DNA of 64,000 nt from the NCBI RefSeq assembly GCF_054482525.1, contig NZ_CM137006.1; one strand, 5' to 3'. Within the stretch, counting starts at the first letter, position 1, and each line of letters begins with the position of its first letter. Below are positions 36,589 through 57,018 of this stretch, in pieces. Below the pieces are notes generated by a model. That model made no database searches and was not told the origin of the DNA. It worked only from the letters and a program-made list of their open reading frames with translations. The position numbers and the translations under genes are program-made.

Positions 36589-37872
36589 ATGGCTGATACA
36601 AAAGCAAAACTCACCCTCAACGGGGATACAGCTGTTGAACTGGATGTGCTGAAAGGCACGCTGGGTCAAGATGTTATTGATATCCGTACTCTCGGTTCAA
36701 AAGGTGTATTCACCTTTGACCCAGGCTTCACTTCAACCGCATCCTGCGAATCTAAAATTACTTTTATTGATGGTGATGAAGGTATTTTGCTGCACCGCGG
36801 TTTCCCGATCGATCAGCTGGCGACCGATTCTAACTACCTGGAAGTTTGTTACATCCTGCTGAATGGTGAAAAACCGACTCAGGAACAGTATGACGAATTT
36901 AAAACTACGGTGACCCGTCATACCATGATCCACGAGCAGATTACCCGTCTGTTCCATGCTTTCCGTCGCGACTCGCATCCAATGGCAGTCATGTGTGGTA
37001 TTACCGGCGCGCTGGCGGCGTTCTATCACGACTCGCTGGATGTTAACAATCCTCGTCATCGTGAAATTGCCGCGTTCCGCCTGCTGTCGAAAATGCCGAC
37101 CATGGCCGCGATGTGTTACAAGTATTCCATTGGTCAGCCATTTGTTTACCCGCGCAACGATCTCTCCTATGCCGGTAACTTCCTGAATATGATGTTCTCC
37201 ACGCCGTGCGAACCGTATGAAGTTAATCCGATTCTGGAACGTGCTATGGACCGTATTTTGATCCTGCACGCTGACCATGAACAGAACGCCTCTACCTCCA
37301 CCGTGCGTACCGCTGGCTCTTCGGGGGCGAACCCGTTTGCCTGTATCGCAGCAGGTATTGCTTCACTGTGGGGACCTGCGCACGGTGGTGCTAACGAAGC
37401 GGCGCTGAAAATGCTGGAAGAAATCAGCTCCGTTAAACACATTCCGGAATTTGTTCGTCGTGCGAAAGATAAAAATGATTCTTTCCGCCTGATGGGCTTC
37501 GGGCACCGCGTGTACAAAAATTACGACCCGCGCGCCACCGTAATGCGTGAAACCTGCCATGAAGTGCTGAAAGAGCTGGGTACCAAAGATGACCTGCTGG
37601 AAGTGGCTATGGAGCTGGAAAACATCGCGCTGAACGACCCGTACTTTATCGAGAAGAAACTCTACCCGAACGTCGATTTCTACTCTGGTATCATCCTGAA
37701 AGCGATGGGTATTCCGTCTTCTATGTTCACCGTGATCTTCGCTATGGCACGTACCGTTGGCTGGATCGCCCACTGGAGCGAAATGCACAGTGACGGTATG
37801 AAGATTGCCCGTCCGCGTCAACTGTATACAGGATATGAAAAACGCGACTTTAAAAGCGATATCAAGCGTTAA
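36589..37872 (+). CDS. gltA: Citrate synthase
   Basis: 427 aa [47 protein letters not shown]...; divergent from sdhC. Confidence 0.95.
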
Positions 37873-37900
37873 TGGTTGATTGCTAAGCCGTTTACTTTCC

Positions 37901-37932
37901 GGACCCGCCTTTAATAGAGCGGGTTCTTTTTT
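37901..37932 (+). terminator. Rho-independent terminator of gltA
   Basis: GGACCCGC...GCGGGTTC hairpin followed by T6. Confidence 0.6.
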
Positions 37933-38261
37933 ATATGGCTGAACATAATAAATTGTAAAAATTAAACCAGATGCAAATACCCATTAATAAGGTGAAAAAA
38001 TGTGACAAGTCACATACTGAGCAGAATGATAAGTTTATTTTTATACTTTCCTGCCGGTAGCATTGTTAACCCAATGAAAATTATGCATATCCATCCCACC
38101 CCATCTTTCATCTCATTAAACAATAAATTTATACACTCAATTATTCCATTCTTTATATAACAAGATTTTTAATATTGTTAAATAAAACCAAATACATTCA
38201 ACTGTCAGTTAATATATTCTTGCCTCGCAACACTCTATCTCATTATTTAAAGGACTCAGCT

Positions 38262-38828
38262 ATGTTTAAAGGACAAAAAACATTGGCCGCACTGGCCATA
38301 TCTCTGCTATTCACAGCACCTGTTTATGCGGCTGATGAAGGATCCGGTGAAATTCACTTTAAAGGTGAAGTTATTGAAGCACCGTGTGAAATACATCAGG
38401 ATGATATTGATAAAGAGGTTGAACTCGGTCAGGTGACCACCAGCCATATTAATCAGTCGCATCACAGCGATGCCGTTGCTGTCGACCTGCGCTTAGTCAA
38501 CTGCGATCTGGAAAACTCCAACAACGGTTCCGGCGGCAAGATTTCTAAAGTTGCAGTCACCTTTGAAAGCTCAGCGAAAACCACCGGCGCAGATCCGATT
38601 CTCAACAACACCAGCACGGGTGAAGCCACCGGCGTCGGCGTGCGTTTAATGAATAAAGATCAAAGCAATATCGTTTTAGGCACCGCTACTCCAGATATCG
38701 ACCTGGCTCCGACCTCCAGCGAACAAACGTTAAATTTCTTTGCGTGGATGGAACAAATTGATCAGGCTACACCTGTAACGCCAGGCGCAGTTACGGCGAA
38801 TGCGACCTACGTGCTGGATTATAAATAA
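38262..38828 (+). CDS. ybgD: Fimbrial major subunit-like protein
   Basis: 188 aa from MFKGQKTLAALAISLLFTAPVYA (signal peptide), type 1 fimbrial fold signature. Confidence 0.85.
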   Translation: MFKGQKTLAALAISLLFTAPVYAADEGSGEIHFKGEVIEAPCEIHQDDIDKEVELGQVTTSHINQSHHSDAVAVDLRLVNCDLENSNNGSGGKISKVAVTFESSAKTTGADPILNNTSTGEATGVGVRLMNKDQSNIVLGTATPDIDLAPTSSEQTLNFFAWMEQIDQATPVTPGAVTANATYVLDYK

Positions 38829-38878
38829 GTATCACTTTGGCGGCGTCATCGCCGCCTTTCTTCAAATATTTATCAGGT

Positions 38879-41338
38879 ATGGACACCGTGAATATTTATC
38901 GACTCTCTTTTATATCCTGCCTGGTCATGGCGATGCCTTCCGCATTGGCGGTCGAATTCAATCTGAATGTTCTCGATAAATCAATGCGCGACCGCATTGA
39001 TATTTCATTATTAAAGGAAAAAGGAGTCATTGCTCCCGGTGAATATTTTGTTAGCGTTGCGGTGAATAACAACCAAATCAGTAATGGGCAAAAAATCAAC
39101 TGGCAAAAAAAGGGTGACAAAACCATTCCATGCATCAATGATTCACTGGTCGATAAATTTGGTTTAAAACCAGATATCCGTCAGTCCTTGCCACAGATAG
39201 ATCGGTGTATTGATTTCAGTTCCCGACCTGAAATGCTCTTCAATTTCGATCAAGCCAATCAGCAACTGAATATTAGTATTCCGCAAGCCTGGCTGGCGTG
39301 GCACTCAGAAAACTGGGCTCCCCCCTCTACATGGAAAGAAGGTGTTGCCGGTGTCCTGATGGATTACAACTTGTTTGCCAGCAGCTACCGCCCACAGGAC
39401 GGCAGCAGCAGCACTAATCTGAATGCCTACGGTACCGCCGGAATTAACGCCGGGGCATGGCGCTTACGCAGTGATTACCAGCTTAATAAGACCGATAGCG
39501 AAGATAACCATGACCAGTCAGGCGGAATATCGCGCACCTATCTTTTTCGTCCATTACCGCAATTAGGCTCTAAGTTAACCCTCGGCGAAACCGATTTCAG
39601 TTCCAATATTTTCGACGGCTTTTCTTATACCGGCGCGGCACTGGCAAGTGACGATCGGATGTTACCGTGGGAGCTACGCGGCTACGCCCCACAAATCAGC
39701 GGCATTGCACAAACCAACGCCACCGTCACCGTGAGTCACTCAGGGCGAGTTATTTACCAGAAAAAAGTCCCACCAGGTCCGTTTATCATTGATGACCTTA
39801 ATCAGTCCGTCCAGGGTACGTTGGATGTCAAAGTGACGGAAGAAGATGGTCGGGTGAACAATTTCCAGGTTTCGGCAGCATCGACGCCCTTCCTGACTCG
39901 CCAGGGACAGGTTCGCTATAAATTGGCCGCGGGTCAGCCACGGCCCTCCATGTCACATCAAACTGAAAATGAAACCTTTTTTAGCAATGAAGTTTCCTGG
40001 GGGATGCTGTCAAATACCTCGCTGTACGGCGGCCTGCTGATTTCGGGTGACGACTACCATTCTGCCGCAATGGGTATCGGGCAAAATATGCTCTGGCTTG
40101 GTGCATTGTCGTTTGATGTCACCTGGGCCAGTAGTCAGTTTGATACTCAGCAGGACGAGCGGGGCTTAAGTTACCGCTTTAATTACAGCAAACAAGTGGA
40201 TGCCACTAACAGCACGATTTCGCTCGCCGCTTATCGCTTTTCAGATCGTCATTTTCACAGCTACGCCAACTATCTGGATCACAAATACAACGACAACGAT
40301 GCGCAGGACGAAAAACAGACGATCAGCTTATCCGTGGGGCAACCGATTACCCCACTGAACCTCAATCTGTACGCCAACCTGCTGCATCAAACCTGGTGGA
40401 ATGCAGACGCCTCCACGACCGCCAACATCACGGCGGGTTTTAATGTTGATATTGGTAACTGGAGAGATATCTCGATCTCGACGTCATTCAATACAACCCA
40501 TTACGAAGATAAAGATCGCGACAATCAGATTTACCTGTCGATTTCGCTTCCCTTCGGTAACGGGGGGCGGGTCGGTTATGACATGCAAAACAGTAGTCAA
40601 AGCACCACGCACCGCATGTCGTGGAATGATACGTTGGATGAACGTAATAGCTGGGGCATGTCTACCGGACTGCAATCCGACCGTCCGGATAATGGAGCCC
40701 AGGTGAGCGGTAACTATCAGCACCTGAGTTCAGCGGGTGAGTGGGATATTTCTGGTACCTATGCCGCCAATGATTACAGTTCCGTCAGCAGCAGCTGGAG
40801 CGGTTCTTTCACGGCAACTCAATATGGTGCGGCGTTCCATCGTCGCAGCTCCACCAATGAACCACGTCTGATGGTCAGTACCGATGGCGTGGCAGATATT
40901 CCGGTTCAGGGCAATCTCGACTACACCAACCATTTTGGCATTGCGGTGGTGCCGTTGATTTCCAGTTATCAGCCTTCCACCGTGGCGGTGAACATGAATG
41001 ATTTACCCGACGGCGTAACAGTGGCAGATAACGTTATCAAAGAAACGTGGATTGAAGGCGCGATAGGTTACAAATCGCTGGCTTCCCGTTCCGGTAAAGA
41101 CGTTAACGTCATCATTCGCAACGCCAGCGGTCAGTTCCCTCCCCTCGGTGCGGATATCCGCCAGGATGATAGCGGCATTAGCGTGGGGATGGTTGGCGAG
41201 GAAGGACATGCCTGGTTAAGTGGAGTCGCTGAAAATCAACAATTTACCGTGGTCTGGGGTAATAGCCAGCGTTGCTCGATCCATCTTCCTGAACATATGG
41301 AAGACACCGCAAATCGCCTGATTTTACCTTGTCATTAA
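38879..41338 (+). CDS. ybgQ: Fimbrial outer-membrane usher protein
   Basis: About 819 aa from MDTVNIYRLSFISCLVMAMPSALA; PapC/FimD-like usher; start codon choice uncertain (ORF track begins at a TTG at 38837). Confidence 0.8.
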   Translation: MDTVNIYRLSFISCLVMAMPSALAVEFNLNVLDKSMRDRIDISLLKEKGVIAPGEYFVSVAVNNNQISNGQKINWQKKGDKTIPCINDSLVDKFGLKPDIRQSLPQIDRCIDFSSRPEMLFNFDQANQQLNISIPQAWLAWHSENWAPPSTWKEGVAGVLMDYNLFASSYRPQDGSSSTNLNAYGTAGINAGAWRLRSDYQLNKTDSEDNHDQSGGISRTYLFRPLPQLGSKLTLGETDFSSNIFDGFSYTGAALASDDRMLPWELRGYAPQISGIAQTNATVTVSHSGRVIYQKKVPPGPFIIDDLNQSVQGTLDVKVTEEDGRVNNFQVSAASTPFLTRQGQVRYKLAAGQPRPSMSHQTENETFFSNEVSWGMLSNTSLYGGLLISGDDYHSAAMGIGQNMLWLGALSFDVTWASSQFDTQQDERGLSYRFNYSKQVDATNSTISLAAYRFSDRHFHSYANYLDHKYNDNDAQDEKQTISLSVGQPITPLNLNLYANLLHQTWWNADASTTANITAGFNVDIGNWRDISISTSFNTTHYEDKDRDNQIYLSISLPFGNGGRVGYDMQNSSQSTTHRMSWNDTLDERNSWGMSTGLQSDRPDNGAQVSGNYQHLSSAGEWDISGTYAANDYSSVSSSWSGSFTATQYGAAFHRRSSTNEPRLMVSTDGVADIPVQGNLDYTNHFGIAVVPLISSYQPSTVAVNMNDLPDGVTVADNVIKETWIEGAIGYKSLASRSGKDVNVIIRNASGQFPPLGADIRQDDSGISVGMVGEEGHAWLSGVAENQQFTVVWGNSQRCSIHLPEHMEDTANRLILPCH

Positions 41339-41353
41339 TTAAGGAAATGAAAA

Positions 41354-42085
41354 ATGACATTTATGAAAGGACTTCCCCTTTTGTTGTTGATTGCCAGTCT
41401 GTGCAGCTACGCTGCGCTACAACCCGATCGCACTCGCATTGTGTTTAACGCTAATGATAAAGCCACCAGCCTGCGAGTGGATAATCGTAGCGATAAACTC
41501 CCCTACCTCGCTTATTCCTGGCTCGAAAATGAAAAAGGGGAGAAAAGCGACGATCTTCTGGTCGCCCTGCCACCGATACAACGTCTGGAACCGAAAGCAA
41601 CAACGCAGGTGCGGATAGTCAAGCAAGCCTCGACCGCGAAATTACCTGGCGATCGCGAAACGCTATTTTTCTACAATATGCGTGAAATTCCTCCCTCCCC
41701 AGAAAAAAACAGCGGCCATGCCGTTCTGCAGGTCGCCATCCAGAGTCGTATCAAGGTGTTCTGGAGACCGTCCGCGTTACGCAAGAAAGCAGGAGAAAAA
41801 GTCGAGCTACAGTTACAAGTCAGCCAGCAGGGCAATCAACTTAACTTAAAAAACCCGACCGGCTATTACCTGACAATCGCCTACCTCGGACGAAATGAGC
41901 AAGCTGTTCTCCCGGGCTTCAAAACCGTGATGGTTGCGCCTTTTAGTACAGTAATTACAAACACCGGAAGTTATAGCGGCAGTCAGTTTTATCTCGGTTA
42001 TATGGATGATTACGGCGCGTTACGCATGACGACGCTCAATTGCAACGGACATTGCCGTTTACAAGCAGTGGAGGCGAAGAAATGA
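41354..42085 (+). CDS. ybgP: Periplasmic fimbrial chaperone
   Basis: 243 aa with signal peptide, PapD-like chaperone. Confidence 0.85.
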
Positions 42086-43143
42086 GTACTGGCAAAGGAT
42101 TGTTGCTCGTCATCTGTCTGTTATTTCTGCCATTGAAGTCTGCGCTAGCGCTGAACTGCTATTTTGGTACTTCCGGCGGAACGGTAGAAAAATCGGAAGC
42201 GATTCAACCCTTTGCTGTGCCAGGTAATGCCAAACCCGGCGATAAGATCTGGGAATCTGACGATATTAAAATTCCCGTCTATTGTGACAACAATACCAAC
42301 GGCAACTTTGAAAGCGAACATGTCTACGCATGGGTAAACCCCTACCCGGGGGTACAGGATCGTTATTATCAACTCGGCGTGACATACAATGGTGTCGATT
42401 ACGATGCCAGTCTGGGGAAAAGCCGCATCGACACCAACCAGTGTATCGACAGTAAGAACATTAACATTTATACCCCTGAGCAGATTATCGCGATGGGCTG
42501 GCAGAACAAAATATGTTCGGGTGACCCCGCTAATATTCACATGTCGCGAACCTTTCTCGCTCGTATGCGGTTATACGTTAAGATTCGCGAAATGCCGCCG
42601 CATGATTATCAAAGTACGCTTAGCGACTACATCGTCGTGCAATTTGATGGTGCCGGTAGCGTTAACGAAGACCCTACCGCCCAAAACCTGAAATACCATA
42701 TTACTGGTCTGGAAAACATTCGTGTACTGGATTGCAGCGTCAATTTTTCTATTTCACCAGAAACACAGGTGATTGATTTTGGTAAATTTAACCTGCTGGA
42801 TATTCGCCGCCACACAATGTCGAAAACATTCAGTATTAAGACGACAAAATCACAAAATGACCAGTGCACCGACGGATTTAAGGTCAGCTCTTCGTTTTAT
42901 ACCGAAGAAACATTGATTGAAGAGGATAAAGCACTGCTGATTGGTAATGGACTGAAGCTACGTTTGCTGGATGAAAATTCTTCACCCTATACTTTCAACA
43001 AATACAGCGAATATGCTGATTTCACCAGCGATATGTTGATCTACGAAAAAACCTATACGGCTGAACTTTCGTCCATTCCCGGCACCCCCATCGAAGCGGG
43101 TCCCTTCGATACAGTGGTGCTTTTTAAGATTAACTATAACTAA
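42082..43143 (+). CDS. ybgO: Fimbrial adhesin-like protein
   Basis: 353 aa from [23 protein letters not shown] with GGAGG RBS; terminal gene of the chaperone-usher operon. Confidence 0.8.
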
Positions 43144-43295
43144 TTTATCATGATGCCCTTTGCAGTCAGTAAAGGGCCTCTCTTTCAGAAAATTGCTGAT
43201 TTTCCCCTTTTCCTTGATTGCTGTTATTTTTTCCTGGCCCGGCTTTCTTTATGCTGTATCGATACACCAAAGAAAAAATAATGAGGGAGCGAAGG

Positions 43296-44342
43296 ATGCC
43301 AGTTTTGCAGTGGGGAATGTTATGTGTGCTCTCACTTCTCCTTTCTATTGGCTTCCTCGGATTACATCTCCCGGCGGCGCTATTACTTGGGCCGATGATC
43401 GCCGGGATCATCTTCAGTATGCGCGGGGTTACCCTGCAACTCCCCCGCTCCGCTTTTCTCGCCGCGCAGGCCATTCTTGGCTGCATGATTGCGCAAAACC
43501 TGACCGTTTCGATCCTGACCACGCTAGCGGTGAACTGGCCGATTGTGTTAGCTATTTTACTGGTGACGTTACTTTCCAGCGCCATCGTGGGTTGGTTATT
43601 GGTGCGCTATAGCTCACTGCCTGGAAATACCGGTGCCTGGGGTTCTTCTCCTGGCGGCGCGTCGGCAATGGTCGCTATGGCGCAAGATTACGGCGCAGAT
43701 ATTCGCCTGGTGGCGTTTATGCAATATCTGCGAGTGCTGTTCGTCGCGGGGGCGGCTGTTCTGGTCACCCGCATGATGCTGGGCGATAACGCTGAAGCGG
43801 TTAACCAGCAGATCGTCTGGTTCCCGCCAGTGAGCATTAATCTCCTGCTTACGATTTTGCTCGCAGTCGTTGCCGGTACAGTGGGATGCTTGCTACGTCT
43901 TCCTTCCGGCACGATGCTCATCCCGATGCTGGCGGGCGCAGTGCTCCAGTCTGGTCAGCTCATCACCATCGAACTACCGGAATGGCTGCTTGCGATGGCG
44001 TATATGGCAATTGGTTGGCGGATTGGTCTTGGTTTCGATAAACAAATATTACTGCGGGCATTGCGCCCGCTGCCACAAATCCTGCTGTCGATTTTTGCTC
44101 TGCTGGCTATTTGTGCGGGTATGGCGTGGGGACTGACCCGATTTATGCACATTGATTTTATGACTGCCTACCTCGCCACCAGCCCCGGCGGGCTTGATAC
44201 CGTGGCAGTCATCGCCGCAGGGAGCAATGCCGATATGGCGCTCATTATGGCGATGCAAACCCTGCGCCTGTTCAGTATTTTGCTGACGGGACCTGCCATT
44301 GCGCGGTTTATTTCAACCTATGCGCCGAAACGTACGGCCTAG
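43296..44342 (+). CDS. abrB: AbrB-family membrane protein (putative regulator of aidB/transporter-like)
   Basis: 348 aa from [37 protein letters not shown]...; polytopic membrane protein. Confidence 0.85.
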
Positions 44343-45130
44343 TGCTGACAGCCAGGGCACCAGTAAAACGGGCGAGATGACAGCGTGGTTTTCTCAATGA
44401 TGCCGCCACAGCGTTCGCACAGTTCGCCATCACGATGAAAAACCTTAAAGCGAAACAGCGCCCCATGATGCTTATTCTCATCCACCTGCCCCCGCGTAGC
44501 GTAAGAAAGTCGAGGAATATCCAGTAACGCGTGTGCGAGTGCATCCAGTTGCGCCGCATTGAGATCTTTCGCTTTATGATTTCCAGTCAACCCAACCTGC
44601 CAGAGGATCTCCACCCGCAAATAATTGCCAAGCCCAGCCAGAAACGCCTGATCGAGCAGTAATCCAGCAAACTGACGGTTACGAAAGCGCGGCGACAATA
44701 ATCGTTCTTTCGCCACCTCCGGCGTCAGATTCGGATCCAGCACATCTGGACCAACGCGTTGTAAAAACGGATGCGTGGTCAGTTGTTCCGGGGTCAACAT
44801 CTCAATATCCGAGGCGCTATAAAGCAGAATGGTTTTGTCAGCCGTTTGCAGTTTTACCCGCAATACTCGCGTGGTCTGCGGCTCTTCGCCGGTTTCAACC
44901 ACGCGCCAGACGCCGTAAAGCTGATTATGGCTGTAGAGCGTTAAACCGTTGGAAAAATGAGTTAACAACGCCTTACCTCGCGTTTCCACATGGGTAACGT
45001 GTTGACCGATAAGTTGTGATTGATAAGGTTCTAACTGCGGGAAGGCAAACCAGACATCAGTTAGTGGTTTGCCTTTGATCGCCGCCTCCAGGTTATCCGC
45101 TGCACGGCGGATCTCCGGGCCTTCAGGCAT
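44339..45130 (-). CDS. nei: Endonuclease VIII (DNA glycosylase/AP lyase)
   Basis: 263 aa [23 protein letters not shown]... with C-terminal zinc finger CxxC...CxxC. Confidence 0.93.
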
Positions 45131-45165
45131 GGTGATATCCTTTTTTCATTCTTTATTAAGCGGGG

Positions 45166-45900
45166 TTATGCTGCGACAACAATCCCCTTTTCGGCAAATG
45201 TAGAGCGTAGTCGGCGGGCGAATGCCAGTGCGTGTTCTCCATCGCCATGCAGGCAGACCGTTTGCGCCGTGACCGTTGCCCATTCGCCGGTGATACTTTT
45301 GACTCTGCCGTGTTGCACCATCTCCAACGTTTGCGCCAGCGCCTGTTCTTCGTTTTCAATCAACGCGCCTGGCTGGCTTCGCGGCACCAGCGAGCCGTCA
45401 GCCTGATAACCGCGATCGGCAAACACTTCCTCGCGCGTTATCAGACCATATCGCTTGCCTGCACGAATCAGCTCGCTTCCCGCCAGCCCGACGAGAATCA
45501 ATGACGGATCGCAAGCGTATACCGCTCTGGCGATGGCGTCTGCCAGTTGTGCCTCTTTCGCCGCCTGGTTGTATAACATGCCGTGCGGTTTGACATGACG
45601 CATTACGCCCCCTTGTGCACGGGTAATCGCTGCCAGCGCGCCAATTTGATACAGCGTCTGGGCGTAAACGGTTTCTGGCGGCAGCTGCATGGCACTGCGA
45701 CCAAAATTTTCCCGGTCGGGAAAACTCGGGTGAGCGCCAATCGCGACACCATTTTTTATTGCTTCACGCACGCAAACCTGCATGGTTTGCGCATCGCCTG
45801 CATGAAATCCACAAGCAATATTGGCAGAGGAAACCAGCGTTAATAGCTCTGCGTCGCTGGCGCAGCCTTCGCCCAGATCGGCGTTCAGGTCAATTTTCAT
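45166..45900 (-). CDS. pxpA: 5-Oxoprolinase subunit A (LamB/YcsF family)
   Basis: 244 aa [36 protein letters not shown]... Confidence 0.9.
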
Positions 45901-46822
45901 TGTGCAGCCGCCACGCTAATTGTTCGAAATAACGTTGTTGATCTTGCCGCGCTTTCAGTGCCTCTTCCAGTGAACACTGGACAAAATGAATCGGCTGACC
46001 GAGCGGAATTTGCGCCAGATGGTACATATCAGCCTCAATGATACAGGCAATACGCGGATAACCACCGGTGGTCTGTGCGTCGTTCATCAATACAATCGGC
46101 TGGCCGTTATGCGGCACTTGCACCACACCCGGCAACAAACCGTGAGATAACAGTTCGCGATCGGTGGTGCGTTTTAAAATTTGCCCCTGTAAGCGATAGC
46201 CCATGCGGTTACTTTGCGGACTAAGCTGCCAGGGCGAACGCCAGAATGCATCCTGCGAGGCGCGATCGAACTCATGATATTCCGGCCCCGGCAAGGCGCG
46301 AATGCGGTTGCCCCACAGCAGCTGTTTAACGCCCTGCGCTTCCATAAAATCACGCTTCGATTTACCCATCGGGAGTCGGTCACCATCCTTCAGTAAACGG
46401 CCTTCCAGCCCGCCAATCCCCACTTTGAGATCGGTACTGCATGACCCCATTACCGGCGGAACATCAATACCCCCCGCGACCGCCAGATAACTGCGCATCC
46501 CGTGCTGCGGGCGTTTAAGCGTTAAACGCTGGCCTGCTTTCATCGGCAAGCGCCAGCCAGTCCAGACGGCATTATCATCCAGCCGCGCTTCGCAACCTGC
46601 CCCCGTCAGGGCAAACCAACCATCAGTTTCGAACTCTACCGTTAACTGACCGAGCGTTATCTCCAGCGCGGGGGCATTGGCGTCATTACCCACCAGCAGG
46701 TTAGCAATGCGTAACGCAGGCATATCCAGTGCGCCGCAGTGGCTGATACCCGACTGGCGAAAACCGTGACGACCGCCATCCTGCACAGTGGTATACATGC
46801 CCGCACGAATAATCTTCAGCAT
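45890..46822 (-). CDS. pxpC: 5-Oxoprolinase subunit C (allophanate hydrolase subunit 2-like)
   Basis: 310 aa; synteny between pxpA and pxpB. Confidence 0.88.
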
Positions 46823-47472
46823 ACTCCCTCCTTCTGCGGTACAAAGCGCACGCTGTCTCCCGGACGTAATAAGATGGGTTCGTCACGCGCCGGATCAAAC
46901 AGGCTGAGTGAGGTATGACCAATCAACTGCCAGCCACCCGGCGTTGCCAGCGGATAAACACCAGTCTGCGGCCCGCCGATCCCGACAGAACCTGCCGGAA
47001 CGAGCAAGCGCGGTTCAGCGCGCCGTGGCGTGTGTAGTTGTTCCGGCAAACTCCCGAGATACGGGAAGCCCGGTTGAAAACCTAAAAACCAGACCACGTA
47101 TTCCACGGAGGAGTGCAATTCAACAACCTGTTTCTCACTCAACCCACAATGCGCCGCGACCACCGCTAAATCCGGTCCGCCTGCACCACCGTAAACCACC
47201 GGAATTTCAATAAAGCGAGACTCAGGTTCCAGGGCCTCGCTCTCCTCCCACCAGCGTTGCAAACGCTCTATGGCATCCAGCGCCAGCGACTCAGGATTAC
47301 GCAAAATCACCGTGATATTGTTCATGCCGGGAATGGCTTCAACCACATTCGGCATATCCACCAGACGCTGTGCCAGTCGCCAGATCCGTTTCTGGCTAGC
47401 CAGCGTCACCGGCGGTTCCAGTTCCAGCACTACCGCCGTTTCACCTATCAGATAACAACGCACTCGTTGCAC
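46816..47472 (-). CDS. pxpB: 5-Oxoprolinase subunit B (allophanate hydrolase subunit 1-like)
   Basis: 218 aa; synteny. Confidence 0.88.
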
Positions 47473-47494
47473 TTTCGATCCCTCTGATTATTCG

Positions 47495-48238
47495 TTATGC
47501 AGGATTAGGAATATCAATAAAGGTCACATCAAGATCGGTATTTTCATTCAGCCACTCGCTCAATGCGCGAATACCACCACGTTCAGTGGCATGGTGACCC
47601 GCAGCATAAAAATGCAATCCCTGCTCGCGGGCTGAATGAATGGTCTGTTCAGAAACTTCGCCAGTAATAAAAGCATCCACGCCAAAACGCGCGGCGCTAT
47701 CGATAAAACTTTGCCCGCCGCCCGTGCACCAGGCAACGCGCTGGACCACCTCAGGTCCGGTATCGCCACACCATAACGGCTTACGTCCCAGACGCGCTTC
47801 AATCCAGGAGGCTAGTTCCAGTCCCGGCACAGGCATGGTCAGTTCGCCCCACGGCACCAACGGCTCAATTTCGCCCATGACCGTGATCCCCAGTAACGCC
47901 GCCAGCTGTGCGTTATTGCCCAGCTCAGGATGTGCGTCAAGCGGCAAATGCCAGCCATACAGGTTGATATCATTTGCCAGCAACGTTTTTAAACGGTTAC
48001 GCTTCATGCCGCGAATGACCGGAGATTCGCCTTTCCAGAAGTAGCCATGATGCACAATGACCGCATCCGCGCCCAGACGCACTGCCTCATCGAGCAAAGC
48101 CTGGCTGGCAGTGACACCGGTAACAATTTTTTGCACCGTCTCTTTGCCTTCCACCTGCAAACCATTCGGCGCGTAATCACTAATCGCCGCGCTGTTCAGT
48201 TTTTCGTTAATCAGTTGTTCCAGTTCGGTGTTTTTCAT
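47495..48238 (-). CDS. ybgI: Nif3-family metal-binding protein YbgI
   Basis: 247 aa MKNTELEQLINEKLNSAAISDYAPNGLQVEGKETVQKIVTGVTASQALL... Confidence 0.9.
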   Translation of the reverse strand: MKNTELEQLINEKLNSAAISDYAPNGLQVEGKETVQKIVTGVTASQALLDEAVRLGADAVIVHHGYFWKGESPVIRGMKRNRLKTLLANDINLYGWHLPLDAHPELGNNAQLAALLGITVMGEIEPLVPWGELTMPVPGLELASWIEARLGRKPLWCGDTGPEVVQRVAWCTGGGQSFIDSAARFGVDAFITGEVSEQTIHSAREQGLHFYAAGHHATERGGIRALSEWLNENTDLDVTFIDIPNPA

Positions 48239-52240: not shown

Positions 52241-52615
52241 TTATTTCGTTATCTTAAATGCTATTTCTATATCACTCGTCCTTATAATCAAATTATTCTT
52301 ATTCATAGCTATTTTTGCAGGTTTAAAATAGCGGCTTTCACCAAAGTTAGCCATAAAAATTAGACTACAAGTTCTCCCAGCCTTTGCACATGAGAAAAAC
52401 CACCCATCAACTCTATTTATTCCTGAACCTTTAACACCATAATAAATCAGAATTTCTGGGTATTGTTCATCCTTCACGTTTTCATATTTTTGGTATTTAA
52501 TTGAAAACCAAGAGTCTATACTGCCAACATCTTCAAAAAATATTGGAGCTGATGTTTCCGCATGAACATATGCAGAAAATGCTAACAAAATGGCAATACT
52601 TAGTTTGGTAAACAT
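52241..52615 (-). CDS. Putative Rhs-toxin immunity protein with N-terminal signal peptide
   Basis: [24 protein letters not shown]... signal peptide; overlaps the 3' end of the Rhs C-terminal domain; AT-rich; alternative GTG start at 52627. Confidence 0.55.
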
Positions 52616-55600
52616 ATCGTTCCACACTTTTCAGGATAATCTATTGGGGGGAGGGGATCTTTTCCTCTAAATCTAATTGCACCCACGCCTTGTTTGTCAG
52701 ACCATTCGCCATTTGCATCCTGACGATACCAGTGATAATCCCCACCCATTCCTATAAAATTGTGAGGACGAATAAACAATTGAGCTTTATGGTAACCAGA
52801 TGGACAACTCCCATTATCTAAATCCTTGGCACCATCATTTTTTGACGCTTCAAAAATACTACTACAAGTGAGTTTAGAAAACTCTTTTCCAGATAATTCT
52901 CCAGGTTGTAATCCTCCGCCGCCAAAATTCCTACTCCCAGGATTTCCATACCTATTTAGAGCATATGAATAGCAATTATTTACGGCAAGATAATACGCAT
53001 CTGAATTTAGTTCTCGATTGAATACTGGAGCAGGTTTATCAATTAAGCCCAACGGATCAATAGAATAGGTTGGATGTATGGAAGCATATACATACTGATT
53101 CCACCCGCCTTCCAGCCCAATCGGATCCTGAGTGATATACCGCCCCTGCAGCGGGTCATAATAGCGGTGGCGGTTGTAATACAGGCCTGACTCCTCATCA
53201 TACTGCTGACCCGGCAGGCGGATGAGCTGCTGCAGCTGGTGCGGGTTCTCTTCATTCAGCTAGTTACCCCATTCATCGTATTCTGCGCACCATTCTGTTG
53301 CCCCTTCCGTGCTGACAAGCGCCAGCGGCAGGCCGCGATGGTCGCAGTGGTACAGGTGGATTTTTCGCGCCGGCGTGTACACCGGGTCCATCTGGTTTTG
53401 CATCTGCTCCACCGTCAGGCCGCACGATGCCAGCCAGCGGCGGCTTTCCTCACTCACCCGGTCAGTAAGGATTTCACTTTCCAGCCGGTCGAGCATCTGC
53501 ACCAGCACCGGCGGGAACACCACATCACCACCGTCTTCACCGCCGGACTGCTGAAGCGCATCCGCCAGGCTGCGGCGCTGCGTTTTCGCCAGCTCACCGG
53601 TGGCAGTTTCAACTCTGATGAGTGGCGTGAAGCTCCCCGGCTGATAAACCGTCTGGATGCGGGTTCTGTCGTTCTGTATCGTGGTCAGCCGGTCGCCGTC
53701 CCAGCCGTACCAGGTCACTTCCGGTTTCCGTGACAGCGACATCCAGCCCGTCAGGTCCCGTTCACGCCGCCACACCCGTTTTGCCACCCTGCGGCCCAGC
53801 GGGTCGTAAAGATAGCGACTTTCGACCAGCGGCTCTGCATATTGTGTCCGCGTGTAGTGCACCAGCCGGTGCTGACTGTCGTAATGGTACTGGTGAGTCC
53901 GCTCATCATCCGTGCGGATAACCCCTTCCGGGATGAGGTCGGTTTTCTCTGTCAGCCTGCCGTGACGGTCATACCGGTAAAGATAGTGCGCGTCACGGGC
54001 GATACGGTTATCCGGCCACATGCTGAGGGTGCTGTCCGGGTGCAGCTCCGGGTCGGGCAGGCGGTTACCTGCCGGGTCTGTGGCATACGGGATGCGGATA
54101 TCAAGGTTCGCTGCCGTGGTGTGAACGCCGGTCAGCCTGCCGGAGTCGCTGTAGCTGTAACTCCGGGTCTGGCGCGGGCTGCTGATGCGGATGAGTTCGC
54201 CGTTGTCGTTCCAGGTGTAATCGCGGTCATACTGCAGGCTGTTCAGATGCTGGCTCTGTAACTGCCCGGCAGGGGTGTAAGCGGTGGTGAGTTCATAACG
54301 GCCGAAGCTGCGCAGCGTTTCCCGGTGCAGGCGGTCGCGGGTGAAATCCACCAGCGGTGTGTCGCCGAGTTTCATGCCTGACAGCCAGCCGCTGCCGTAG
54401 GTCAGCCATTCCACGGCGGGCAGGCTGTCCGGTATACAGCGGTTCGCCAGTCCCTGCGCGTTGTAAGCGTGTCTGGTTTCATGCTGCCAGAGCAGTGCTT
54501 CCGTCTGCGGGTGATGCACCGTCTGGCGCTCACCGGTCAGGCGGCCTTTCTCATCATACCCGTAATGCACCGTCACCCGGTGGCCTTCGCTGAGATGGCT
54601 GATTTGTGTCAGCCAGCCGCGTTCGTCATACTGCCACTGCTCTGCCGGTTCACCCTTCACGGTGCGGTGAGTGAGGCGGTCTGCTTCGTCATAGTGCCAG
54701 TGGGTGACCAGCCCCTCATCCTCGCTGCGGATAAGTTTGCCGGTCAGGTCGTGGTGATAACGCTGTGTGCGGCCGTCAAAGCCGGTTTCCTGTATCAGCC
54801 GGTCAAGTACATCGTAACGGAAGGTGGTGTGGCTGCCGTTTTCACTGGTCAGGCGGATGACCCGTCCGGCAGCATCGTATTCCATACTGCGCGTCAGACC
54901 GCCCTGCGTGGTACGGATGGCCTTTCCCCACGCATCGTACTGTGTCCCGTTTCTGCTGCCGTCCGGGGCAATGACGGCGGTCAGGTCACCGGCGGCGTTG
55001 TATTCATACCGCGTTTCATGGCCCTGCATGTCTTTCACCGCAATTAACTGTCCACGGCTGTCGTATGCGCGGTACTGGCTCAGGCCTTCCTCGCGGTGCA
55101 CCGCCGTCACCTGACCAAAACGGTCATGGTCATAACGGGTTACATAACCGGAACAGTCAGTGACGGTCAGCAACTGACCGTAACGGCTCCATGTCATGGT
55201 TTTCCGGCTGCCGGTGGCATCCTCCGTTGCGCAGGGTAAGTCACTGTGTGGATTATCATAACGGTAGCGGGTGATATCGCCGTCAGGGGCAGTTTCCTGA
55301 ATCAGACGGCCGGATTCATCATATTCCCGGCGTATTTCCAGCCCGTCAGTCCCGGTGGCTGACGTTAACTGGCTGTGGTGGTTATAGTAAAACGCCGATG
55401 CCCTGCCATCCGGCGTGGTGATGCGCGTGATGAGGCCCGTCACCACATCCGGGCTGTATTCTGTTGTCCGGCCTGCGGCATCCGTCTGTGCCTTAAGCCT
55501 GCCCACCGCATCAAACTGACTCTGCGTGACGCTGCCGTCCGCGTGTTCCTTTTTCACCACCCGCTTCAGCCCGCCTTCGCCCTGCGTGTGCAGCACTTCA

Positions 55601-56775
55601 CGGCGGTCCAGACTGTCGGTGATGGTGATGCGGTCTTTCTCATACTGATACGTGTAGCTTAAGCCTGCCGGGTTTAGCTGCTCTGTCACCCGCCCGTCGC
55701 TGTCGTAACGGTAACGGATTTCCGGCCGGCCCGTGTGACGGTGCGCCACCATCCGGCCCCGGTATTTATCATCGTAAGTAAAGCTGCGCACCTGTGTATT
55801 GCTGCGGTCATACACCGCCGCCAGTTCGCCGCGCGGCGTCCAGCCATAGCGTACCAGCGGCGCGGCTGGCAGGTTATCCGGATATTCCGGGTCGTGCGTC
55901 AGCCACACGGCAGACAGACGGATGCCGTTGTCCCGGCCATATTCGGTGTAACCCGGCAGGGTATCAGGAAAAGCGGACGGTTCCGTCCCGCCGGAAATGG
56001 CCTGCTGCCGGGCTTCTTCTGCCCGCTGCGCCTGCGTGGTCAGTACCAGCCGGAAGTGACGCCCGGCACCATCCGTCACGCCGCTGAATTCGCCGCCAGC
56101 CTCACGGTGGAACGTCTGTGTGCGCCCGAAGCGGTCCACCAGCCCGGTCAGTACCCGGTACGGCGGCAGCGGCGCAGGCAGCACCTCATCCGCCTCCGGC
56201 ACCCGCTCACACCAGCCGAGTACCCACCACGGCCCCTGCGGACTGTTCGTCGCCAGATAACGATGCGGACTCAGGCGAAGCTCTTCCGGCAGCGCCTGCC
56301 AGAGTGCGGCCAGCCGGTGACCTTCATCCAGTTTCGCCACGCCGCCACGCACCAGCCAGAGTGACTCGCTGCGGCTGTAACCGTCCTCACCGGGAAACAG
56401 GTGCTCAAAATACAGGCTCCTGCCGCCGTTATCACTGAGTATCAGTGTGTTATCGCGCAGCTGTAAGCGGATATCCGCGGGCATTTTCCAGCCGGGGCCG
56501 AGGCTCCCCACCGGCGCGGGCGTTTTTGTCCGGTAACTGCTGTAGGTGCGGGAGAGGATGAACGGCAGCGGGCCGGGCAGGGCAAGGTCGGTTTCGCCGG
56601 GAAGGACCTTCGCACCGAGCAGCGGATTGACCGGATGGCCGGACGTCACCCCGCCGGGGCACACCGAACAGGCCACGCCGGTGGGGGCACCGATGCGCAC
56701 CCCGGCTGAACCCTGAACAATGCTACCGCCATACTGCGTCATGTCGCCCTGACGCGCCGCCGGTTTTCCGCTCAT
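52600..56775 (-). pseudogene. rhsC: rhs element gene (RhsC-like) interrupted by in-frame TAG at 53260-53262; core 53263-56775, C-terminal toxin region 52600-53259
   Basis: N-terminus [17 protein letters not shown] and YD-repeat core match Rhs proteins; expected WGNLLNEENP reads WGN-stop-LNEENP; same frame continues through DPIGL...DPLGL into a 145-aa C-terminal domain. Confidence 0.8.
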
Positions 56776-56963
56776 CTGCTCATCCTTGTTTTATCGGGTT
56801 ATTTGTCTGCTGACAGGCGAAACCCTACAGATTTATAAGAAAGCCTTAAGTGAGATATCCGTCAGATAGAAACAATTAGGAAAATATTTATATATGTTTC
56901 ATGAATATATGTTTCGATTGGTATAACGGTGTCTAAATATTCCTCTGAACATCTTCCTGATAC

Positions 56964-56996
56964 AAAAAAACCGCCAGCGTTTCCGCTGGCGGTTTT
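56964..56996 (-). terminator. Terminator hairpin after ybfA
   Basis: AAAAAAA-CCGCCAGCG-TTTC-CGCTGGCGG-TTTT. Confidence 0.6.
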
Positions 56997-57018
56997 CAAT
57001 GTATTCAGAACTCAGCAA

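Follow-up and report, generated by a model that had tools for sequence, protein, structure and literature searches.

The window analyzed here, a stretch of 64,000 nucleotides, belongs to E. coli, and the 2.4 kb around the junction between abrB and nei are 100% identical to strain PCN033. As presented in Table 1, the two genes converge and end on one and the same CTAG. The sequence-only reading of this DNA had placed both stop codons on that tetramer, and the sequence and its open reading frames bear this out to the base. It had further described a convergent pair that leaves no intergenic room for a terminator; this geometry is right, the spacer being zero, and nothing fits between the two genes. 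nei is reportedly the terminal gene of an operon.

Table 1. Features at and around the nei/abrB junction (positions are those of the window)
Feature	Position	Strand	Description
Shared stop tetramer CTAG	44339-44342	both	abrB TAG at 44340-44342 (+); nei TAG at 44339-44341 (-)
abrB CDS	43296..44342	+	348 aa; PF05145 / TIGR03082; start from RefSeq
nei CDS	44339..45130	-	endonuclease VIII, 263 aa
ybgI-pxpB-pxpC-pxpA	45166..48238	-	upstream of nei, same strand
Hairpin GCGGGCGCAATGCCCGC	44054..44070	-	T-rich tail, weak; within abrB in antisense, 270 nt beyond the nei stop
C-rich, G-poor stretch	43979..44058	-	27 C and 11 G in 80 nt, 280-360 nt past the nei stop; candidate Rho loading/termination zone
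C-rich windows, C/G 1.9-2.0	44423..44662	+	abrB readthrough RNA, antisense inside nei; candidate Rho entry region

The two stop codons and the proteins they end

Every E. coli annotation record that we examined besides the window carries the 4-bp overlap. RefSeq annotates the identical nei/abrB overlap in PCN033 and, in K-12 MG1655, places nei at 745935-746726 (+) and abrB at 746723-747769 (-); the overlap is likewise annotated in Sakai, ZJ3920 and Ecol_AZ161, always as CTAG. Of 5426 complete E. coli genomes, 5424 contain the 2.4 kb junction region, and an 84-mer around the junction is identical to K-12, CTAG included, in at least 1502 genomes. The class of this overlap has been described before, and the reference annotation already contains it. 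At the other two convergent junctions of the window, 41 nt separate phrB from dtpD and 107 nt separate IS200 tnpA from cobO.

Re-evaluation of the two stop positions, by means of crystal structures, family profiles and RefSeq, found both of them genuine. Nei aligned end to end with the crystallized 262-residue protein (1K3W and others), down to the terminus ...CPGCQH, and the NCBIfam endonuclease VIII equivalog NF007763 covers residues 1-263 of 263 with 499 bits. The Pfam domains of Nei are PF01149 (Fapy_DNA_glyco), PF06831 (H2TH) and PF06827 (Fpg zinc finger), and the zinc finger match extends to the last residue; as in Fpg/Nei DNA glycosylases, the glycosylase domain is N-terminal, an H2TH domain is present and the zinc finger is C-terminal. 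The annotated AbrB C-terminus is ...APKRTA, and the profiles PF05145 and TIGR03082 ("membrane protein AbrB duplication") stop 9 residues short of the annotated stop. Pfam and NCBIfam scans of the abrB product gave only these two profiles, and an AbrB/SpoVT-type DNA-binding domain is absent. RefSeq names the product of 43296-44342 "AbrB family transcriptional regulator"; judging from the domain content, the name that it has in common with the Bacillus DNA-binding AbrB (transition-state regulator) looks misleading.

We also considered all 505 CTAG, TTAA, CTAA and TTAG tetramers of the window, and only the one at 44339 is approached on both strands by long open frames, of 374 and 268 codons; every other one falls short of 100 codons on at least one side. 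Therefore, the nei/abrB overlap is a real gene junction and no chance pairing of open reading frames.

The shortest tail-to-tail overlap and its variation

Opposed stop codons cannot overlap by one, two or three bases; the minimum is 4 nt and, because of the sequences of the stop codons, only CTAA, TTAA, CTAG or TTAG can occur at this length. These four tetramers have been named for convergent overlaps by Lillo and Krakauer (2007; PMC2174442), who counted 58 convergent overlaps in E. coli. As they describe, the terminators of such genes lie necessarily inside the partner gene, and intrinsic terminators were predicted there in 21 of the 58 E. coli overlaps. Tables 2 and 3 of the same paper give 1890 convergent overlaps in 58 genomes, 1218 of which measure at least 5 nt, leaving by subtraction 672 of the 1890 (36%) for the 4-nt class. 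All the traits of this class are present at nei/abrB and nothing essential is different. Within the class, nei/abrB carries the double-TAG tetramer CTAG; as E. coli uses few TAG stops and CTAG is rare in it, this tetramer should be the least frequent of the four in that species. In the window, CTAG is the rarest tetranucleotide: it occurs 15 times, whereas base composition predicts about 249 copies and a Markov model about 42. When these positions were mapped onto the annotation, the copy at 44339 was the only one of the 15 used as an annotated stop. Two of the 15 are inside tRNA genes, at 1414 and 1850 (tRNA-Lys, tRNA-Val).

For the comparison across species, we fetched 80 Enterobacteriaceae loci containing nei and measured each junction. 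We observed the CTAG overlap with abrB in E. coli, E. whittamii and Escherichia clade MOD1, and a CTAA overlap in E. albertii and two Citrobacter-like genomes; in the eight Citrobacter-like genomes with a 4-nt overlap, the tetramer is TTAG, CTAA or TTAA. All four permitted tetramers were found at orthologous nei/abrB junctions. The first base of the tetramer is the third position of the last AbrB codon, where the change from GCC to GCT is silent at Ala348, and the fourth base is the third position of the last Nei codon, where the change from CAC to CAT is silent at His263. The two outer bases are free to vary because each transition is silent in the partner and keeps the stop in its own gene. 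The arrangement would persist on these terms, with only C/T exchanges at base 1 and G/A exchanges at base 4 being tolerated as silent in both genes, because any other change in the tetramer removes a stop codon.

In other relatives, the two genes are apart. The gap between nei and abrB measures 6 nt in Salmonella arizonae, 54 nt in S. diarizonae and 25, 75 or ~940 nt in other Citrobacter. The S. arizonae gap (locus L026, 4790-4801) resembles a 10-nt duplication of the overlapped CAG...TAA end. The S. diarizonae gap (locus L011, 4793-4850) contains the motif CTTATCGGGCCTAC, which recurs in other loci; we take it to be REP-like from this recurrence and from its likeness to the REP consensus. An inverted pair of the same motif stands right after nei in Kluyvera georgiana (locus L040, 4793-4870), and the REP motif had no match in the window. 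The overlap is probably ancestral to the Escherichia/Salmonella/Citrobacter group and was later opened by small insertions. In terms of overlap evolution, the stop bases would drift among the four tetramers, and small insertions would open the overlap.

In Klebsiella, Enterobacter, Kluyvera, Leclercia, Buttiauxella and others, abrB does not adjoin nei; gltA is the convergent gene, 40-120 nt away, and the nei-gltA spacers often contain an A-run, a hairpin and a T-run, e.g. AAAAAAACGCGCCTTCAGGCGCGTTTTTT. Escherichia, Salmonella and Citrobacter have abrB between nei and gltA, and E. coli also has the ybg fimbrial operon there. The gltA gene of the window is found beyond abrB and this operon, with a hairpin and T-run downstream (~37900-37935), and over the region 36589-44342 such an element was found only beside gltA. 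An AT-rich stretch (~37950-38260) follows the gltA-side hairpin. Both in E. coli and in Klebsiella, Enterobacter and Kluyvera, nei ends a unit that faces a convergent gene. However, in the latter genera the spacer holds a bidirectional intrinsic terminator made of A-run, G+C hairpin and T-run, whereas the E. coli nei/abrB junction has neither spacer nor such an element. From these gene orders, we infer that, within the Escherichia/Salmonella/Citrobacter lineage, abrB came to abut nei, which lost its intrinsic terminator. nei may be a clean natural example of a unit that is left without its former intrinsic terminator, the one seen in the nei-gltA spacer of other genera, and that relies on Rho inside its neighbor.

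Some Citrobacter (loci L013, L016, L017, L022 and L028, at ~4795) have a different convergent partner, AraC-like by sequence and 282-304 aa long (longest ORF), the stop of which is only 2 nt from the nei stop. In a Pluralibacter metagenome-assembled genome (L051), a related AraC-like gene overlaps nei by 10 nt. The 3' end of nei draws tight junctions with different partners.

A TTAA version of the K-12 junction was queried against 5416 E. coli genomes, and a perfect match was obtained in a single one, NZ_CP025268.1, a K-12 MG1655 derivative from Boston. Across 3084 nt, this genome differs from MG1655 only in the two outer bases of the tetramer, and prfA is absent between hemA and prmC. Therefore, NZ_CP025268.1 is an RF1-less, TAG-free recoded strain; we infer that it belongs to the C321.deltaA lineage. 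Since this viable recoded strain carries TTAA, the palindromic CTAG itself is dispensable. Both genes could be recoded from TAG to TAA since neither change alters the partner protein. In the genome-reduced strain DGF-298, the abrB-ybgD deletion destroyed the nei stop, with His263Gln and a 9-residue extension as the outcome, and nei is annotated as a pseudogene (PMC10652928). Deleting or recoding one of the two genes requires protecting the stop of its partner.

Transcription beyond the two stops

As presented in Table 2, expression at the locus was read from strand-specific RNA-seq of the wild type (sense and antisense RPM, Table S1c of Huang et al., 2020; PMC7373196). In these K-12 data, the sense signal drops about 8-fold over the 35-nt gap between pxpA and nei, which may point to attenuation, to 3' decay or to a weak, separate promoter of nei. 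The p19-captured dsRNA of the same study amounted to 6.5-21 RPM for nei, 5-12 RPM for abrB and 136-293 RPM for pxpC and pxpA, and far less dsRNA was obtained from 3' than from 5' overlaps (Huang et al., 2020; PMC7373196). Overlapping transcription of nei and abrB exists, with little dsRNA and at very low levels. The supplements of PMC10407733 mention neither nei nor abrB, and PMC3734233 holds nothing on either gene.

Table 2. Strand-specific reads over the nei operon and abrB in the wild type (RPM; PMC7373196)
Gene	Sense	Antisense	Remark
ybgI	121.5	1.2	
pxpB	76.9	1.3	listed as ybgJ
pxpC	102.9	2.8	listed as ybgK
pxpA	40.6	5.0	listed as ybgL
nei	5.4	4.1	
abrB			8.2 and 2.3, sense and antisense unassigned; the entries for abrB and ybgL look inconsistent in the strand column

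In K-12, Adams et al. (2021; PMC7815308, Supplementary file 2) mapped a Rho termination region at 747036 (+), antisense to abrB (Rho score 2.87, p = 7.6e-5). The reads upstream and downstream of it were 68 and 30 in the untreated culture and 75 and 95 with bicyclomycin, counts which are low and refer to 800-nt windows. This coordinate corresponds to position 44029 of the window, ~310 nt past the nei stop, where the window strain is 96% identical to K-12. The nei readthrough RNA is untranslated past the stop and is C-rich and G-poor, as Rho-dependent terminators require. The nei strand thereby resembles the Rho-dependent antisense termination of that study, which combines a bicyclomycin-sensitive drop a few hundred nt past the stop with a C-rich, G-poor RNA, but the resemblance covers the nei-strand direction only and comes from K-12 at low read counts. 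No Rho region is given in PMC7815308 for K-12 abrB transcripts entering nei, a signal that low abrB expression may mask, and no Term-seq 3' end was mapped there at the junction genes on either strand. Rho may also terminate the abrB transcripts inside nei, in the candidate entry region of Table 1.

The sequence-only reading had proposed strand-specific RNA-seq as a check for antisense readthrough, and the published K-12 data support such readthrough by the Rho region inside abrB and by antisense reads close to the sense reads over nei. Its suggestion of possible transcriptional interference held in part: the K-12 data contain readthrough and overlapping transcription at a low level, and an effect of either gene on the other is only hypothetical.

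In the explanation that we propose, the two coding regions abut so tightly that their stops occupy one CTAG and, the spacer being zero, each transcript would end inside the other gene. Polymerase leaving the nei operon would continue into abrB, antisense to it; because the RNA past the nei stop is untranslated, Rho would load on it and terminate over the next few hundred nt, a step shown in K-12. Equivalent Rho termination would apply to abrB transcripts entering nei. Overall, nei/abrB is very probably an ordinary minimal tail-to-tail overlap, with a tetramer that has no function beyond the two stops and with readthrough that is ended in the partner gene. Such a junction has little biological weight and is a textbook example of the shortest tail-to-tail overlap.

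A promoter/terminator consensus scan found no terminator-like site at the junction, and the region contained 4 terminator-like matches for 4.4 expected from shuffles. Folding of the 121 nt around CTAG did not surpass that of shuffles on either strand (z = +0.86 and +0.46), and an Rfam scan of 41000-48000 at E <= 1 gave no match. A G+C hairpin flanked by an A-run and a T-run is not present between nei and abrB, where there is no spacer. A hidden bidirectional terminator at the junction was rejected on the empty consensus scan and on folding equal to that of shuffles on both strands.

An intrinsic terminator inside abrB could also end the transcripts of the nei operon, namely the hairpin at 44070-44054 of the minus strand with its T-rich tail. 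This hairpin has 7 pairs, 6 of them G-C, followed by the tail AGTAATATTT, and is one of the terminator-like matches; its local fold reaches -14 to -18 kcal/mol, and it lies 270-300 nt past the nei stop, adjoining the mapped Rho-region coordinate. The intrinsic terminators predicted inside the partner gene for 21 of the 58 E. coli overlaps (PMC2174442) offer a precedent. However, terminator-like matches in the region are at the level of shuffles, the z score of the hairpin is only -1.5, its T-run is interrupted and no Term-seq 3' end has been reported there (PMC7815308), while the increase of readthrough by bicyclomycin points to Rho. An intact stem is confined to E. coli proper, being disrupted in E. 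whittamii, E. albertii and clade MOD1 and missing from Citrobacter and Salmonella, and no compensatory changes or covariation were found. As a conserved terminator, the hairpin was rejected on the cross-species alignment. We consider it unlikely that it ends the nei operon transcripts; at best, it may shield a 3' end that has been trimmed.

Besides Rho termination inside an ordinary overlap, we weighed whether the overlap is a working cis-antisense or interference device, acting in either direction through polymerase collision or RNase III-cleaved dsRNA. In favor of this, the antisense signal over nei nearly equals the sense signal (4.1 vs. 5.4 RPM), with the upstream operon genes at ~100:1-3, and the sense signal falls from pxpA (ybgL) to nei as described above. 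In addition, p19-captured dsRNA is found at a low level on both nei and abrB, nei-strand RNA runs into abrB in K-12, and K-12 genomic SELEX peaks for minor sigma factors lie within ybgO, upstream of abrB (PMC5493296). However, at such a very low expression collisions should be rare, and the dsRNA of 5-21 RPM is far under that of the neighboring genes, at a 3' overlap of the dsRNA-poor type. Furthermore, the geometry is not conserved: nei and abrB are separated by 6, 25, 54, 75 or ~940 nt in Salmonella and several Citrobacter, and in most genera gltA, not abrB, lies opposite nei. The variability of the junction in close relatives argues against a conserved interference device. Compared with the excludon or RNase III sense-antisense pairs (PMC7373196), nei/abrB likewise has overlapping 3' ends and small amounts of captured dsRNA, but this dsRNA is low, the arrangement is not conserved in close relatives and a regulatory effect is only hypothetical. 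Taken together, we regard a working device at this overlap as quite improbable.

Two further readings of the overlapping transcription are less probable. abrB is a reported regulator of aidB. There is a very slight chance that the ybgI-pxpBCA-nei readthrough serves as antisense RNA on abrB, or that stress-induced transcription of abrB by minor sigma factors damps nei; if true, such an antisense reading would couple oxidative base-excision repair to an alkylation-response circuit via the zero-spacer junction. The second reading is collision-driven bidirectional termination, in which polymerases coming from both sides pause at a common element and bring about each other's termination. nei and abrB converge and their transcription overlaps, and this model has been described for E. 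coli gene pairs in the hundreds (Ju et al., 2019, summarized in bioRxiv 10.1101/2022.10.23.513370). According to this preprint, the model needs a bidirectional element with pausing hairpins and is best for well-expressed pairs, but the nei/abrB junction has no excess structure, its expression is low and the nei-strand readthrough is Rho-sensitive, which makes this mode of termination exceedingly improbable here. Finally, there is next to no chance that the overlap is an annotation artefact with one true stop codon elsewhere: no support for it was found; the final 2-3 residues of AbrB do differ between species, but the Nei C-terminus matches the crystal-structure chains exactly (for nei, the solved structures have already refuted this reading), the family profiles reach the ends of both proteins (to within 9 residues for AbrB), and the stops are set by reading frames that homology backs over their full length in the 80 loci.

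Other features of the window

Just past the ybgO stop and before abrB, a terminator-like hairpin, GCCCTTTGCAGTCAGTAAAGGGC, with a T-rich tail is found at 43155-43177 (+). Between sucD and cydA, the segment 13931-24540 holds a methylaspartate (glutamate mutase) pathway cluster, cobO, a class I fumarase and an IS200C transposase, and appears to be a strain-variable island. At 52600-57000, a gene for an RHS element core protein (4176 nt) and a small downstream ORF adjoin ybfA.
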